From Candidatus Nezhaarchaeota archaeon WYZ-LMO8 (GTDB taxonomy: Archaea; Thermoproteota; Methanomethylicia; Nezhaarchaeales; WYZ-LMO8): 38,013 nucleotides of DNA. Position numbers: made by a program. Shown one piece after another: positions 21,001-27,000 of this stretch (its first letter is position 1; each line of letters begins with the position of its first letter). The DNA lies in assembly GCA_004347965.1 (NCBI GenBank), contig QNVF01000008.1, positions 1 through 38,013 of the forward strand, in the 5' to 3' direction.

Positions 21001-24000
21001 ACATAATTCATGCATCTGACAGCAAGGAAAGTGCTGATAGGGAGATCAAGATTTTCTTTGATGAGGAGGAGCTGTGCAGCTACTCGAGAGCTGATGAGCT
21101 TTGGCTTTAAAGGCATTAGAGGTCTTCTAATCGACAAGTTAAAGAGCGTACTCTTCGGTTTTCATCACGCTAAACTATTTGAGAGGAGGTGTCATGTTGT
21201 GAGTAGCGTAGAGAGTAAGAGGATTAGGTCGCCAATACTTTGCGTACTGGGGCATGTTGACGTTGGGAAGACGCTTCTCCTAGACAAGATTAGAGGTACT
21301 GCAACGATGTTTAGGGAAGTTGGGGCCATGATGCAGCGCTCTTCAGGGGGCGCTGCATGGTAGACCCAACACATTGGAGCTTCTTTCCTGCCTTGGTCTG
21401 CTCTTGAGAAGATATGTGGTCCATTACTTAAGAGTATAAGTGTTGAGATTAAGATACCTGGCTTCTTGGTCATTGATACTCCAGGTCATGAGGTCTTCGT
21501 TAACTTGAGGAGGAGAGGAGGCTCGATAGCTGACATGGCTATTCTGGTTATAGACATCCTTGAAGGGTTTGAGGAGATAACTTATGAGTGTTTGGAGATC
21601 CTGAAGGCTAGGAAGACCCCATTTGTGGTTGCTGCAAACAAGATAGATAAGATACCTGGATGGGTTGAGAACGAGTTTAAGCCTTTCATTGAGACAATAA
21701 AGCTGCAGCCTCCTCACGTTCAAAAGAGGCTTGATGAGCTCGTCTACAACATAGTTGCTAAGTTTGAAGAGTTGGGATTCCAAGCTGATAGATATGATAG
21801 GATAAGGGACTTCACGAGGACTGTAGCTATAATACCTACCAGCGCTAAGACTGGAGAGGGCATACCAGATCTTTTACTTGTCTTAGCTGGCTTATCTCAA
21901 AGATACATGTTAAAGAGGCTCTACGTTGAGGAATCAACGGCTAAGGGGGTAGTGCTTGAGTGCAGGGAGCTACCAGGCTTGGGTACGGTAGCTGACGTGA
22001 TAATCTACGATGGCATATTAAGAAAGGATGACACGATAGTGCTTGGCGGGCTCAAGGATCCCATAGTTACTAAGATCAGAAGCTTACTAATGCCTAAGCC
22101 AATGGATGAGATGAGGGATCCTGAGGATAAGTTCAAGAGCATTGATGAAGTTACGGCAGCTGCTGGTGTGAGGATTGTAGCTCATGGGCTTGATGAAGCC
22201 GTAGCTGGAAGCCCCCTATTTTCAGCGAGAAGTCAAGCTGAGATAGAGATGGCCATAAAGCAGGTATTTGAGGAGATGGCGAAGATCAGGATAACAACAG
22301 ACATCACTGGAGTTGTAGTCAAAGCTGACACACTAGGTTCTCTTGAAGCGCTGGTGCTAAAACTGCAGGAGCATGGCGTTCCGGTAAGGCTTGCTGATGT
22401 AGGTAAGATATCTAAGAGGGATGTGGTGGAAGCCTCCATAACGAGGGAGAAGAACCCGCACTATGGTGTGATTTTGGCGTTCAATGTAGGCATAAACCCT
22501 GATGCCGAACAGGAAGTAGAAAGTAGGGGTATACCGGTCTTCAGGAGCAACGTCATCTACAGGCTGATAGATGAGTACTTAGAATGGACCAAGAAGAGGA
22601 TGGAGGAGGAACGTAGACAGACTCTATCCTCCCTAATACTGCCAGGTAAAGCGCAGATACTAAAGGGCTACGTCTTCAGGAGGAGCGACCCAGCAATAGT
22701 TGGAGTCGAAATATTGACTGGAAGGTTGAGACCAGGATATCCATTAATGAACTCTAAAGGTAGGAGACTCGGTGTGATAATGCAGATACAGGAGCAGAAG
22801 AAGAGTTTAAGTGAGGCTGTAGCTAGACAAGCTGTTGCAATATCGATTAAGGGTGACGTGATAATAGGTAGGCAAGTCGATGAAGGAGATTACATCTACG
22901 TTGACGTACCCCCGGAGCACGTAAGGATATTGAAGGAGAAGTTCTTGGATCAATTATCGAAGGAAGAGCTTGAGCTCCTCGATGAAATAGTTAAAATGAG
23001 AAAAGCTGCTGGTAGATACTAGTCGTGCTCGACGACCTCAAAGTTTTTAGCTAAGTCGTAGAGTGTGTTCATGCTAAGGGGTGAAAGTAACGCCCGAGTT
23101 TAAAGTGGTTGTATCTGATCCATCAACTGGAAAAGCTCAGCAAGTAACTGTTAGCGGACCACAAGCAAATGCATTGATAGGTCTCAGGATAGGAGACGAG
23201 GTGGACGGTGCATTGATTGGAGTGCCCGGAGTAAGGCTTGTAATTAAAGGAGGAAGTGATAGAAGCGGAGCTCCTATGAGAGCTGATCTTCCAGGTCCTG
23301 TAAAGCGAAGATTACTGCTAAGTCAGGGTCCAGGATTTAGGCCAACGAGAAAGGGTTTGAGGAAGAGGAAGCTTGTCAGAGGAAACACGGTATCTGAGGA
23401 CATAGTTCAGATTAACATGGTTATAAAGCGTGAGGAGGTTAAGCATGGCTGAAGAGTGGATGAAGAGACAAGCTGAACTTAACATCGGTACAACGGGTCA
23501 CGTAGATCACGGGAAGACGACCTTGACTTGGGCTCTATCTGGAGTATGGGCTTCGAGACACTCTGAGGAGCTAAGGAGAGGGATAACTATTAAGCTGGGT
23601 TATGCAGATACAATCGTGTTGAAGTGCCCTAAGTGCCCACCTCCACAATGCTACACAACTTATGCCCTATCAGGAAGTACATGTAAGCATTGTGGATCTA
23701 AACTAGAGTTTGTTAGGAAGTACTCATTCGTAGACTGCCCTGGACACGAGATTGCACGCCCATAGCGGGCGTGCAACGTGATATGCTAATGGCTACAATG
23801 CTTGCAGGAGCAACGATGTTCGATGGCGCCATACTGGTAATAGATGCTACGGTTCCATGCCCTCAACCTCAAACGCGAGAGCACTTAAAGGCTCTTGAGA
23901 TAATGGACGTGAAGAACGTAGTAGTAGTGCAGAACAAGATTGAGGTTGTCCCGAAGGAGAAGGTTATAGAGAACTATCGTCAAATAAGGGAGTTTCTAAA

Positions 24001-27000
24001 GGACACGATGTTGCACGATGCACCGATAATCCCAATATCTGCGCTTCACAAAGCAAACCTCGACGTCCTAATAGAGACCATTGAGGAGAAGATTCCAACA
24101 CCAAAGAGGGATCCATCGAAACCTCTTAGAGCACTGATAGCTAGGTCCTTCGATGTAAATAGGCCTGGAACCCCTCCACAAGAGCTTAAGGGTGGTGTTT
24201 TGGGTGGATCTATAATTCAAGGAGTGGCCAAAGTTGGTGAGGAGATCGAGATAAGGCCTGGAATTAGAGTGGAGAAGGGTGGAGGAAGAGTCGAGTACGA
24301 GCCTCTATTCACTGAAATAGTTAGTTTAAAGGCTGGCGATGTCGAGGTGGAGGAAGCTAGACCAGGAGGCTTAGTAGGTTTTGGCACTCTCCTAGATCCA
24401 TCACTCACAAAGGCTGATTCTCTCGCAGGTAACATTATAGGCAAGCCGGGCACCCTACCACCAACGTTATCAGATCTTGAGTTGGAGACCTTCCTTTTCG
24501 AGAGAGCAGTAGGCACAGTAGATATGGTGAAGGTTGAAAACATAAGGCCTAATGAGGTCTTAATGATAAATGTTGGTACCACAACAACTCTTGGAGTCGT
24601 GGTTAAGGCGTCTAAGGACGTAGTTTCCATCAGGCTACGAAGACCAGTATGCGCTGAGCCGAAAACTAGAGTGGCTATAAGTCGGCAGATAGCTGGTAGG
24701 TTTAGGTTAATAGGTTATGGGATAATAAGGTAGTAATGCTGGAGGGACTACGTATTAGTTAAGGTGCTCTTCGACACAAACCTATTGATGGCTGCATTTG
24801 AAAGACCTGTAGATGTCATTAGAAGAGTCGAGGAGCTACTTGAAGCTAAGATTGAACCCATAATCTTGAAGGCGCAGCTTCAGGAGCTTGAGAAGATAGC
24901 CTTATCTGAGAAGAGGTGGAAGGCTTCTAGGATGGCTCGTGCAGTCTTGGATTACGTTAGGTTCAAGTTTAAGGTCATTGAGGGTTGTGGAGAGAGCGTT
25001 GACGACGCCATAGTTGAAGCTGCTAAGCGAGAAGGCTGCATCGTAGCTACTAATGACAGAGAGCTGCGAAGAAGGCTTCGAAGCATTGGTTTGGGCGTGA
25101 TATACATGAAGGGTGATGGAAGGTTTGAACTGGAAGGTTACCAGCCTTAGCGTGAACGCAAAAAGTTTAATACAAAAGGATTGATGTCTCTAAACCACAC
25201 AATGCTCTGTGAATGATTGCATGGTGAAGAGCTCATGTACTACTTAGCTACCATCTCTGATGAAGTTAGGATCCCGCCCAACCGATTTAATGAAAAGCTT
25301 GAGGATGTTGCTTTTGATAGCTTGAGGAGCATGTATGAGGGAGTGGTGATAAAGGGGCTTGGATTGATAGTTGCAATATTAGGGGTTAAGGTTTCCCCTG
25401 TAGGTAAGATTGTGCCGGGCGATGGAGCAACATATCATAAGGCTAAGTTCGAAGCTCTCGTCTACGCCCCCATCGAGGGGGAGGTAGTTGAAGGAGAGGT
25501 AGTTGAGGTAGTTGATTTTGGAGCTTTTGTTAGGATAGGACCGATTGATGGGCTGGTGCACATATCTCAGGTGGCCGACGACTACATATCCTTTGACAAG
25601 AAGAAGGGCGAGCTTCTGTGTAAACAGGCTAGGAGGAAGCTGTCGAGAGGCGATAGCGTAAGGGCAAGGATTGTAACTGTTAGCATGAGTGGTATGAGGT
25701 TGAATGAAATTAAGGTTGGGTTGACAATGAGGCAACCGTTCTTAGGAAAGATAGATTGGATCATCGAGGACTTAAAGAAGGAGAAGGCTCCAACCAAGGT
25801 GAAGGAGAAGTGAGTAAGAGGACTACTGCTAGATTTAAATGCTGCTTAAGGTGCAAAGCTCTCCTTACAAGCCAAGCCAACATATGTCCTAACTGCAAGT
25901 CAAGCGACTTCACCTTCGATTGGAACGGGCTCGTAGTAGTCTTCGATCCTGAGACCTCCGTAATAGCTAAGGTCCTAAACATAACGAAGCCCGGCAGGTA
26001 CGCCATCAAGTGTAGGTGAAGAGCTTGAAGATAAGGGCGTTTAAGATAGATGAGGACCTAAGGAGGGAGTTAGGCAAGCCTTGGGGGCTCGTGGTAACCA
26101 ATAATGAGGTGGAGTCTGGAAGGCTTGAGGAGATATTGAATCAAATGAGCCCCCACATGATAATAACCGTAGGGGATGTGACCACCCACACCTTTCTTGA
26201 GAGGGGTATAAGACCTAGAGTGGCGATAGTAGACATGAAGACCTTGAGAGGCCCCTATCAAGCTGATTTTGCTGAGAAGATGAAGATGGTTTGTGAAGTG
26301 GTTAATCCACCGGGTCACATAGTCTCCACCATGGTGGAGCACGTGAAGGAAGCTATCGATGAGGGAGGGTTCATACTAGTTAAGGGAGAGGAGGATCTCC
26401 TCGTCATCCCATCAATAATCGCATCGCCGGAGGGAGCCGTGATAGCTTATGGTCAGCCGGGTGTAGGGGTTGTGTTAATAAAGGTGGATAAAGATAAGAG
26501 GGAGAAGGCTAGGGAGTTGCTAAGATCCATGAGGGAGGTAGAGCTTGATGTTGATGCAGTACCAGGTTAAGGTCTTGAGGGACGTGGAGAACAAGGTTCT
26601 AAATAGGAGGGAGCTCATCCTCCGCATACATCACGCTAATACGAGAACCCCGACGAGAGCTGAAGTGAGGGAGCTTGCCTCCTCAATGTTCAGTGCTCCA
26701 CAGAACTTAATAGTAGTGAGGAGCTTAAAGACCATCACCGGCACCAACGTTACTGAGGCCCACGTCCACATATACCGTGACGAGAAGACGTTAGAGGAAG
26801 TTGAGCCAAAGCACGTAAAGATTAGGAACTTCGGAAAGAGGGAGGAGGAAAAGGAGGAAGGGAAGAGGGCTGAGAAGAAAGGAAGAAAATGAGTGAGGGC
26901 TATTGGCGCGTAGGGTCGTAGTGTTAGGTATAGAGTCGACTGCCCACACATTTGGGTGTGGAATTGTAGACTCAAGCGGCAACATCTTGGCAAACGTCAA

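Follow-up and report, generated by a model that had tools for sequence, protein, structure and literature searches.

Predicted bulge-helix-bulge introns in the coding sequences of the translation initiation factors aIF5B and aIF2-gamma of a Nezhaarchaeota archaeon

The window, a stretch of 38,013 nucleotides from contig QNVF01000008.1 of the hot-spring archaeon Candidatus Nezhaarchaeota archaeon WYZ-LMO8, contains the genes of two translational GTPases, infB (aIF5B) and eif2g (aIF2-gamma). Each of the two is single-copy in the genome and is interrupted by a short insert (Table 1). The lengths, positions and sequences of both inserts were as given in a first-pass annotation of this DNA, which had read them as bulge-helix-bulge (BHB) introns of the tRNA type.

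Table 1. Genes, predicted introns and structural elements of the infB and eif2g region, with positions counted along the window
Feature	Position	Strand	Remarks
infB exon 1	21199..21330	+	44 codons, GTG start, P-loop GHVDVGKT
infB BHB intron (predicted)	21331..21363	+	33 nt, last codon is an in-frame TAG
infB hBHBh' motif	21319..21370	+	fold, covariation, RNAalifold
infB outer helix	21319-21324 with 21365-21370	+	GTTGGG/CCCAAC, 6 bp
infB central helix	21325-21328 with 21358-21361	+	GCCA/TGGT, 4 bp, one G-U
infB bulges	21329-21331 (TGA), 21362-21364 (AGA)	+	
infB inner hairpin	21332-21357	+	inner helix 11-12 bp
infB exon 2	21364..23022	+	552 codons and stop, begins TQHIGA
Ribosomal protein S6e gene	23081..23452	+	between infB and eif2g, uninterrupted; Pfam Ribosomal_S6e E = 2e-40
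eif2g exon 1	23445..23750	+	102 codons, last residues DCPGHE
eif2g BHB intron (predicted)	23751..23782	+	32 nt, shifts the frame
eif2g HBh' motif	23745..23783	+	fold, pairing in relatives
eif2g central helix	23745-23748 with 23777-23780	+	CACG/CGTG
eif2g bulges	23749-23751 (AGA), 23781-23783 (ATA)	+	
eif2g inner helix	23752-23761 with 23767-23776	+	10 bp; loop 23762-23766
eif2g exon 2	23783..24733	+	316 codons and stop, begins MLMATML

The pieces of both genes were compared with protein family models. Residues 4-44 of infB exon 1 matched positions 4-44 of NCBIfam PRK04004 and residues 1-548 of exon 2 matched positions 45-591, the two exons meeting exactly between positions 44 and 45. Likewise, residues 4-102 of eif2g exon 1 matched positions 2-96 of PRK04000 and residues 1-316 of exon 2 positions 97-411, meeting exactly between 96 and 97. 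The second exons alone scored 772.7 bits (cut-off 468) for infB and 472.6 bits (cut-off 315) for eif2g, with the N-terminus supplied by exon 1 in both cases. In Pfam, infB exon 1 covered positions 4-31 of GTP_EFTU, and exon 2 positions 60-183 followed by GTP_EFTU_D2, IF-2 and GTP_EFTU_D4. The span of 73-183 that had been claimed for infB holds for the shorter called open reading frame and not for these pieces. The separate GTP_EFTU spans of 4-80 and 85-187 claimed for eif2g were obtained again, on exon 1 and on exon 2, the latter also containing D2 and eIF2_C. A six-frame family search read infB through one TAG, as before. When the pieces were joined in silico, open frames of 596 aa for infB (REVGAM followed by TQHIGA) and 418 aa for eif2g (DCPGHE followed by MLMATML) were obtained.

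A BHB motif consists of two 3-nt bulges on opposite strands with a 4-bp helix between them and occurs in the strict variant hBHBh' and in the relaxed variants HBh' and hBH, which lack one of the flanking helices, as defined in the accessible text of PMC6379350. The infB motif has the strict hBHBh' form (z = -6.1 for the fold). Its 6-bp outer helix, 4-bp central helix and bulges TGA and AGA had been described correctly, and its inner helix measures 11-12 bp. The eif2g motif (z = -3.5) has an outer helix of 1 bp only and is therefore of the relaxed HBh' form; the earlier description of its CACG/CGTG helix, its bulges AGA and ATA and its 10-bp inner helix was borne out. A distal exon pairing that could have served as the eif2g outer helix appeared in one MFE fold, was absent in the relatives and was rejected.

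The endonuclease EndA cleaves both 3-nt bulges behind their second base. The genome encodes RtcB and two EndA paralogs, of which one aligns with the catalytic half of the fused model and the other with its structural half. ARAGORN flagged introns in 16 of the 51 tRNA lines of the genome. When the cut rule was calibrated on these tRNAs, the ARAGORN intron boundaries matched exactly in 2 of 14, and the boundaries are probably imprecise. No tRNA genes were found within the window. With respect to the tRNA-type reading, every defining feature that can be examined in sequence was found.

The predicted eif2g junction was observed exactly in a metatranscriptome contig, X14 record 21 (525 nt, depth 35.2). 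This contig aligned to 23459-23749 and 23783-23992 with a single A between, which corresponds to the predicted junction with a synonymous change of GAG to GAA. A single assembled contig of a single run carries this joint, and it stems from a near-identical strain, not from this genome. The DNA runs, which could not be searched for the joined form in the first-pass annotation, were now checked: the spliced eif2g joint was absent from three DNA runs, which held the unspliced form only, and two of the three contained the whole stretch with 0 differences. That an intron-less DNA variant contaminated the X14 RNA library and gave rise to the joint is a formal possibility. For infB, the only contig covering the intron was unspliced (188 nt, depth 3.2), and no spliced RNA was found in the single RNA run, where this one contig makes up the whole cover of infB. 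Both the spliced eif2g and the unspliced infB contig had been reported before and were reproduced.

The occurrence of the inserts in the order was determined in 15 species genomes from three families (f1, f2 and f3). An infB insert of 29-33 nt was present in all 15, and an eif2g insert of 31-35 nt in all 10 genomes of f1 and in none of the 5 of f2 and f3. The distance from G1 to TQHIGA was 103-114 nt in the insert-bearing relatives as compared to 81 nt; these values and the size range of the eif2g inserts agreed with those first reported. In the class sample outside the order, 25 of the 40 infB loci that were analysed had an insert in the same position, as against none of 38 loci for eif2g. 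Elsewhere in the phylum, 10 of 100 genomes had the infB insert at this site and 8 of the same 100 had one at a second site, at the P-loop. Since the open-frame length misses inserts when it is used as a screen for interruptions (genome G131 has a frame of 597 aa yet two inserts), 89 further loci were fetched for the infB phylum survey; for eif2g the phylum level was covered by the length screen only. Intron-less members of an intron-bearing family retain the exact spliced context, EVGAM followed by TQHI. The infB intron is old. It is found at one and the same codon boundary throughout all three families of the order and across most of another large family of the class, and its losses were precise. 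The eif2g intron is restricted to a single family.

The inserts measured 22-35 nt overall, many of them not multiples of 3, and cutting by the bulge rule restored the frame every time. In the class sample infB inserts of 22, 25, 27, 29, 30, 31 and 33 nt occurred, all as the rule predicts, and the rule gave the correct length in 40 of 40 infB loci. The central helix was paired at 4 of 4 positions in 39 of 40 infB homologues and was invariant in the 10 homologues of eif2g; the infB inner helix had 25 distinct sequences. For infB, 94.7% of the cells paired in the relatives, compared to 32-39% when the partners were slid. The infB inner helix showed strong covariation: both sides changed in 8 of its 9 pairs, and none of 500 shuffles reached the observed score. 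RNAalifold recovered the motif unaided from an alignment of 15 infB sequences with 8 of 18 pairs compensatory; 5 of 14 had been obtained earlier on another set. Between families, the infB exon strand GCCA pairs with TGGY and GGGA with TCCY. For eif2g the covariation was weak: 98.6% of the cells paired in 10 relatives, with 2 compensatory pairs, both from one genome, and the score was reached by 10 of 500 shuffles.

The BHB structure alone proves nothing, because shuffled genomes contain similar numbers of hairpins: compact BHB-like hairpins with an inner helix of at least 10 bp numbered 36 in the genome and 18-32 in four dinucleotide shuffles. The signal above chance comes from the cut sites coinciding exactly with the gene breaks, from their conservation and from their covariation. 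A genome-wide de novo search for BHB motifs, filtered for those that join ORFs, returned 17 candidates and placed infB at rank 1 and eif2g at rank 3. The list was unreliable (the candidate at 13529-13556 is the boundary of the enolase and ribosomal S2 genes), cbf5 was missed, and the scan was not used for the intron count. Further interrupted genes of this genome are cbf5, with a 22-nt BHB-compatible insert between GHGGTL and DPKV, an IF-2B-family gene and uS5. Of the nine introns in eight genes counted previously, five interrupted genes, including infB and eif2g, were verified. Two more GTPases were considered as candidates and rejected, as the contig ends within the aEF-2 gene and the HflX gene is uninterrupted. 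No other copy of the inserts was found in the genome with blastn-short, and an origin as mobile-element or tRNA-intron copies was rejected.

Taken together, our results suggest that both inserts are tRNA-type archaeal BHB introns within protein-coding sequence, for which we estimate a probability of about 0.88. A different outcome would be translational recoding, where the ribosome passes the insert by stop read-through, frameshifting or bypassing, aided by the hairpin, and the RNA stays uncut. This would fit the infB insert of this genome, whose length is divisible by 3 and which contains only one TAG, and also the unspliced infB contig. Bypassing, as in T4 gene 60, likewise involves a stable hairpin. 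We regard recoding as very improbable since infB inserts of 22, 25, 29 and 31 nt in the relatives are not multiples of 3, some of the relatives' inserts contain two stops, matched take-off and landing codons are absent and eif2g RNA without the insert was observed. In addition, the conserved element is the BHB geometry of 3-nt bulges and a 4-bp helix, and no coding feature.

The removal of the inserts from the RNA by another nuclease or ligase, or by self-cleavage, would be compatible with the missing outer helix of eif2g. We consider this hardly credible, because the geometry is exactly the EndA substrate definition of PMC6379350, as far as its accessible text goes, and because two-subunit EndAs are reported to accept relaxed motifs and have been linked to cbf5 splicing, according to the accessible part of PMC10485636. 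Group I and group II introns are much longer than inserts of 22-33 nt, and Rfam, searched at E values up to 1, returned no match and no known ribozyme.

Decaying pseudogenes or neutral insertions, with the proteins not being made, could account for the public records, in which the gene pieces are entered as truncated proteins or as proteins of their own (IF-2 is deposited as 549 aa lacking the exon with the P-loop, and a 'GTP-binding protein' of 106-114 aa corresponds to eif2g exon 1). This has next to no likelihood, as neither gene has a second copy here, both are found universally among the archaea sampled (infB in 118 of 121 genomes, eif2g in 121 of 121), the exons themselves are intact and show conservation across 40 species, and the inserts occur at one codon boundary only, with covarying structure. 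Assembly or sequencing artefacts, conceivable for a metagenome-assembled genome of 78 contigs, are practically negligible, since DNA-run contigs from three studies, some of which may be the source sample, match with 0 differences and homologous inserts of different sequence occur in independent genomes from other sites.

If the inserts are BHB introns, the pre-mRNA would fold locally such that each splice site is located in a 3-nt bulge and the two bulges lie on opposite strands of the 4-bp helix. The 5' strand of the central helix and the outer helix would be built from exon codons, and the intron hairpin would close the motif. The two-subunit EndA would cut behind the second base of both bulges and RtcB would ligate the exons, yielding the mRNAs for a 596-aa aIF5B and a 418-aa aIF2-gamma. 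We infer that both introns are processed by EndA and RtcB and that the infB mRNA is spliced as well. The unspliced mRNAs code only for N-terminal P-loop fragments of 54 and 106 aa, and splicing would therefore be obligatory.

A more far-reaching proposal, which we consider unlikely, is that such mini BHB introns form a set preferring genes of the translation apparatus (aIF5B, aIF2-gamma, IF-2B-family, uS5 and Cbf5) and may be retained as an EndA/RtcB-dependent checkpoint coupling tRNA maturation to translation initiation, with a logic that might resemble HAC1/XBP1 splicing. The infB site would then be a recurrent or ancient 'proto-splice site', possibly created by the self-complementary conserved codons GYTGGG and CCCARC, which flank the site even in intron-less genes. 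In eukaryotes, HAC1 and XBP1 are spliced independently of the spliceosome by Ire1 and a tRNA ligase or RtcB in a regulated stress response. This type of unconventional splicing is mentioned in the accessible text of PMC13149111. It shares with the present case a short intron in a coding mRNA, paired stem-loops, a tRNA-type ligase and a frame change that gates protein production, but the nuclease, Ire1, is a different one.

Among the closest known cases is the cbf5 intron of the Crenarchaeota (Watanabe 2002; Yokobori 2009, PMC2738675), which is also a short BHB or relaxed BHB element in coding sequence, occurs in hosts with hetero-oligomeric EndA and shows gains and losses. In contrast, the hosts here are translational GTPases, several genes are interrupted in one genome, and infB offers two alternative sites, with its intron extending over an entire class and turning up again in other parts of the phylum. 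The BHB element in the Haloferax volcanii HVO_1309 mRNA is cut by EndA in vivo and in vitro, according to the accessible part of PMC7714728, but it is located in the 5' UTR, and the EndA there is homodimeric. With the introns of archaeal pre-tRNA and pre-rRNA the motif definition and presumably the enzymes are shared, whereas here codons subject to protein constraint form the exon strands of the helices. Archaeal IF-2 (aIF5B) is also known to be interrupted by inteins at a strongly conserved GTPase motif: in the genomes of another family (f18) an intein is located in the P-loop between GK and TS, with open frames of 734-759 aa. Inteins, however, lie in frame, are removed at the protein level and are hundreds of residues long.

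No report of BHB introns in infB or eif2g was found in the literature searches. According to the accessible parts of PMC7714728 and PMC10485636, cbf5 is the only archaeal coding-region BHB intron in print, which agrees with the first-pass annotation; reviews still name it as such, alongside one 5'-UTR case. Our results would add two essential, universally conserved translation initiation GTPases to the coding-region BHB introns and bring the interrupted genes to at least five in one 1.35-Mb genome. The infB type of insert is widespread in related archaea and is unrecognised by public annotation; the split and truncated records may distort marker-gene phylogenies and completeness estimates. The class carrying the infB intron now includes cultivated methanogens, according to the accessible literature. 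In conclusion, the related genomes reveal intron gains in prokaryotic protein genes that are dated, as well as precise losses, and offer a tractable system for the question whether such introns regulate anything.

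Contig C77, which makes up the window, belongs to a 1.35-Mb genome assembly (78 contigs, 93% complete, GC content 43.5%). Between 20.6 and 25.8 kb the genes of nucleoside diphosphate kinase, aIF5B (infB), rps6e, aIF2-gamma (eif2g) and a PIN-domain protein all lie on the plus strand. The first-pass annotation had proposed that infB is interrupted by an insert of 33 nt and eif2g by one of 32 nt, and both interruptions were recovered at these sizes and places (see the table). When the pieces were joined by a script, open frames of 596 aa (infB) and 418 aa (eif2g) were obtained. Against the curated model PRK04004, residues 4-44 of infB exon 1 matched positions 4-44 and residues 1-548 of exon 2 matched positions 45-591. 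Against PRK04000, residues 4-102 of eif2g exon 1 matched positions 2-96 and residues 1-316 of exon 2 matched positions 97-411. In both genes the pieces meet without gap or overlap, at 44 and 45 in infB and at 96 and 97 in eif2g, and the Pfam domain GTP_EFTU is divided between them in the same manner. At the end of the contig, the aEF-2 gene is cut and only its last 58 residues are in the assembly (37823-37996, minus strand).

Interrupted genes and their inserts; a hyphen within a residue string marks the position of the insert
Feature	Position	Strand	Length	Remarks
infB exon 1	GTG start 21199	+	44 codons	P-loop GHVDVGKT, ends ...REVGAM
infB insert	21331-21363	+	33 nt	in-frame TAG at its end
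infB exon 2	after insert to 23022	+		frame resumes at TQHIGA...
eif2g exon 1	ATG start 23445	+	102 codons	ends ...DCPGHE
eif2g insert	23751-23782	+	32 nt	changes reading frame
eif2g exon 2	after insert to 24733	+		MLMATML..., frame different from exon 1
cbf5 insert (L091)	C1:76636-76657	minus	22 nt	GHGGTL-DPKV, BHB-compatible
IF-2B-family gene insert (aIF-2B / MtnA-like)	C35:6124-6150 (L089:1125-1151)		27 nt	THCN-AGALAT, BHB-compatible
uS5 insert (L088)	C72:142-170		29 nt	QKQTD-AGETSRFK

In the public databases the pieces appear as separate proteins. The NCBI entries 'translation initiation factor IF-2 [Candidatus Nezhaarchaeales archaeon]' have 549 aa and correspond to infB exon 2 alone, without the P-loop exon. 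For eif2g, exon 1 is annotated as a 'GTP-binding protein' or 'translation initiation factor 2 subunit 3' of 106-114 aa and exon 2 as separate proteins of 305-316 aa. The cluster of the 54-aa infB exon-1 piece also includes a 430-aa protein annotated as pimeloyl-ACP methyl ester carboxylesterase, which is probably a mis-clustering.

Around the infB insert the RNA folds, from outside to inside, into an outer helix (GTTGGG/CCCAAC), a 3' bulge AGA, a central helix (GCCA/TGGT), a 5' bulge TGA and an inner hairpin of 11-12 bp, and the 58-nt piece has a minimum free energy of -34 kcal/mol (z = -6.1). In eif2g, CACG pairs with CGTG to form the central helix, which is flanked by the bulges AGA and ATA, and the inner helix is 10 bp long (z = -3.5); since there is a single possible outer pair, this is the relaxed HBh' form of the bulge-helix-bulge (BHB) motif. 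Cleavage is placed after the second base of the bulge, and this rule yields the junctions required by homology in both infB and eif2g. The BHB motif is defined by two 3-nt bulges and a 4-bp helix, with hBH and HBh' as relaxed variants (PMC6379350). The codons on either side of the infB site can pair with each other (GYTGG ... CCARC, for example 21319-21324 with 21365-21370), and this complementarity is also found in some intron-less infB genes (loci L085 and L039). Such self-complementary codons could make the site prone to carry a BHB intron.

The structure by itself is not beyond chance. The genome contains 36 compact BHB-like hairpins whose inner helix is 10 bp or longer, compared with 18, 29, 32 and 32 in four dinucleotide shuffles. 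Only hairpins of the infB grade, which also have an outer helix of at least 4 bp, are rarer, with 3 in the genome against 0-1 in the shuffles. One BHB-like hairpin of the window at 13529-13556 passed the ORF-joining filter and was rejected as a false positive, as the flanking frames belong to two genes, enolase and ribosomal S2. The case therefore rests on the coincidence with the gene breaks, on conservation, covariation and RNA.

Conservation was followed within the order, in 15 species-level genomes from three families (f1-f3), our genome included. The infB insert was present at the same codon boundary in all 15 and had 29, 30, 31 or 33 nt. The eif2g insert was present in 10/10 genomes of f1 (31-35 nt) and in none of the five of f2 and f3. 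In the alignment of the 15 infB sequences 94.7% of the cells were paired, compared with 32-39% when the 3' partners were slid. Changes on both sides were seen in 8 of the 9 pairs of the inner helix, and the observed score was reached by 0/500 shuffles. Without guidance, RNAalifold found the hBHBh' motif in this alignment, and 8 of its 18 pairs were compensatory. For eif2g, pairing was observed in 98.6% of the cells with only two covarying pairs, both from a single genome, and the covariation score was matched by 10/500 shuffles.

The class sample comprised 61 genomes, of which 46 lie outside the order; 40 of these could be parsed, and the other six gave no match or lay at contig ends. Of the 40 loci, 25 carry an infB insert of 22, 25, 27 or 33 nt at this boundary (f5 24/27, f9 1/1) and 15 lack it (f4 5, f6 2, f7 4, f8 1, f5 3). 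In all 40 intron-bearing loci from order and class the insert length was that predicted by the bulge rule. Of these loci, 39 have a complete (4/4) central helix and one has 3/4; the outer helix never falls below 3 bp and measures 6 bp in 35, and the inner helix occurred in 25 distinct sequences. The three intron-less f5 genomes have retained the exact spliced context EVGAM-TQHI, and one of them belongs to the same genus as an intron-bearing genome, which suggests a precise intron loss. Families without the infB intron have EPGTM or EAGGI in place of EVGAM. Both flanking motifs of eif2g were located in 38 class loci, and none of these 38 showed an insert.

In the rest of the phylum, 101 infB loci from 100 genomes were parsed. 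Ten genomes had an insert at the same boundary, distributed over the families f23 (3/3, 24 nt), f22 (4/5, 18-20 nt), f32 (2/2, 32 nt) and f15 (1/9 parsed, 17 nt). In these genomes the central helix pairs GGGA, GAAA or GAGA of the exon with the matching TCCY, TTTC or TCTC of the intron; exon and intron have here changed in a compensatory way. A second infB site lies inside the P-loop (GH-VDHGKT), where eight genomes have an insert of 17-31 nt (f22 5/5, f32 2/2, f29 1/1; loci L078-L083, L085 and L086 of genomes G165, G102, G116, G151, G124, G107, G074 and G131); its central helix was 4/4 in 7/8. In three genomes both infB inserts are short and contain two stop codons each: both have 18 nt in G102 and in G116, and in G165 one has 17 nt and the other 20. 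The 89 remaining phylum loci showed no interruption at either intron site (L141 and L150 by inference from family mates). Five of these 89 otherwise uninterrupted loci, all of f18 (L161-L165), contain an intein at GK-TS; it ends with ...HN before TSLLDK, and the open frames have 734-759 aa. Thus, the same few infB codons are used by three kinds of intervening element in different lineages.

For eif2g the phylum was covered by an open-frame screen, of a kind that missed the infB inserts of G131, and it flagged our genome and G107. The G107 gene (L087, C24:6100-6720) has a 29-nt insert after GHVDHGK. Since its predicted inter-bulge helix has 7 bp with a bulged A, and not 4 bp, this insert is outside the canonical motif. 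Taken together, the motif geometry, the rule-predicted junctions, the conservation and the infB covariation support the earlier proposal that both inserts of the window are BHB introns.

Splicing was followed in X14, a metatranscriptome from sediment and the one RNA run that covers part of the stretch (word share 0.14), alongside three hot-spring DNA runs (X1, X4 and X10) from three studies. All of this evidence consists of assembled contigs, and rare forms are dropped by assembly. Record 21 of X14 (525 nt, depth 35.2) maps to 23459-23749 and 23783-23992, and one A separates the two parts. The end of exon 1, ...CACGAA, is directly joined to ATGCTAATGG, which is exactly the predicted eif2g junction; GAA is a synonymous variant of GAG that occurs in relatives too. 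One contig thus shows the splicing of eif2g at the RNA level, as the first-pass annotation had reported. The joined form could now also be looked for in DNA, and the joint was absent from the assembled contigs of all three runs. Record 1 of X1 and record 22 of X4 cover the entire 3.7 kb and record 11 of X10 covers 23057-24800, each with 0 differences, and these runs may contain the source sample. The infB contig, record 17 of X14 (188 nt, depth 3.2), spans 21208-21392 and is unspliced, as noted before; it could derive from pre-mRNA or from DNA carried over. Among the assembled contigs of X14 none showed infB spliced, and we infer the splicing of infB from the comparative evidence, which is very strong.

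Two EndA paralogs are encoded in the genome, at C12:27378-27932 and C2:24733-25266, and both have the N-terminal as well as the catalytic Pfam domain; an RtcB ligase is encoded too. One paralog aligned with the catalytic C-terminal half of a fused two-unit EndA model, the second with its structural N-terminal half; the latter paralog also had weak matches to subunit-beta models. For cbf5, mRNA splicing has been proposed to be linked to hetero-oligomeric EndA (PMC10485636).

Further interrupted genes of the genome came from spot checks, not from a census. The cbf5 insert, the classic known BHB case, was found here too, with a CCCT/GGGG central helix, AGA in both bulges and an inner helix of 4 bp. 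In the IF-2B-family gene, positions 2-114 and 117-280 of Pfam IF-2B fall in separate frames. The BHB insert of uS5 has a 9-bp inner and a 3-bp outer helix; exon 2 begins at position 17 of Pfam Ribosomal_S5, and exon 1 searched alone gave no Pfam match. With infB and eif2g, all five genes belong to translation or ribosome biogenesis, which is a pattern in five cases with no background rate and not a result.

Introns had been predicted, unconfirmed, in other protein genes of Sulfolobus genomes in a 2006 book chapter, as cited in 2009 (PMC2738675). In 2020 cbf5 was described as the one BHB mRNA intron then known, to which a 5'-UTR case was added (PMC7714728), and in 2023 'at least two archaeal genes ... 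more remain to be discovered' were mentioned (PMC10485636). Within the searched literature, to which subscription-only papers and supplements did not belong, no listed paper combined BHB terms with aIF5B, aIF2 or infB, and none paired 'Nezhaarchaeota' with 'intron'. Among 20 listed papers on Methanomethylicia, Verstraetearchaeota or Methanosuratincola, three also mention 'intron', but judged by their titles none of them deals with mRNA introns in archaea. According to titles and abstracts, cultures have been obtained within this class and of a methanogen of the Nezhaarchaeia type (PMC12244365, PMC12700198). In conclusion, the two interruptions are confirmed and their interpretation as BHB introns is supported. 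The mechanism is of a known kind; what is new within the searched literature is the choice of host genes, the conservation across the class, the presence of a second infB site and the number of such introns in one genome.
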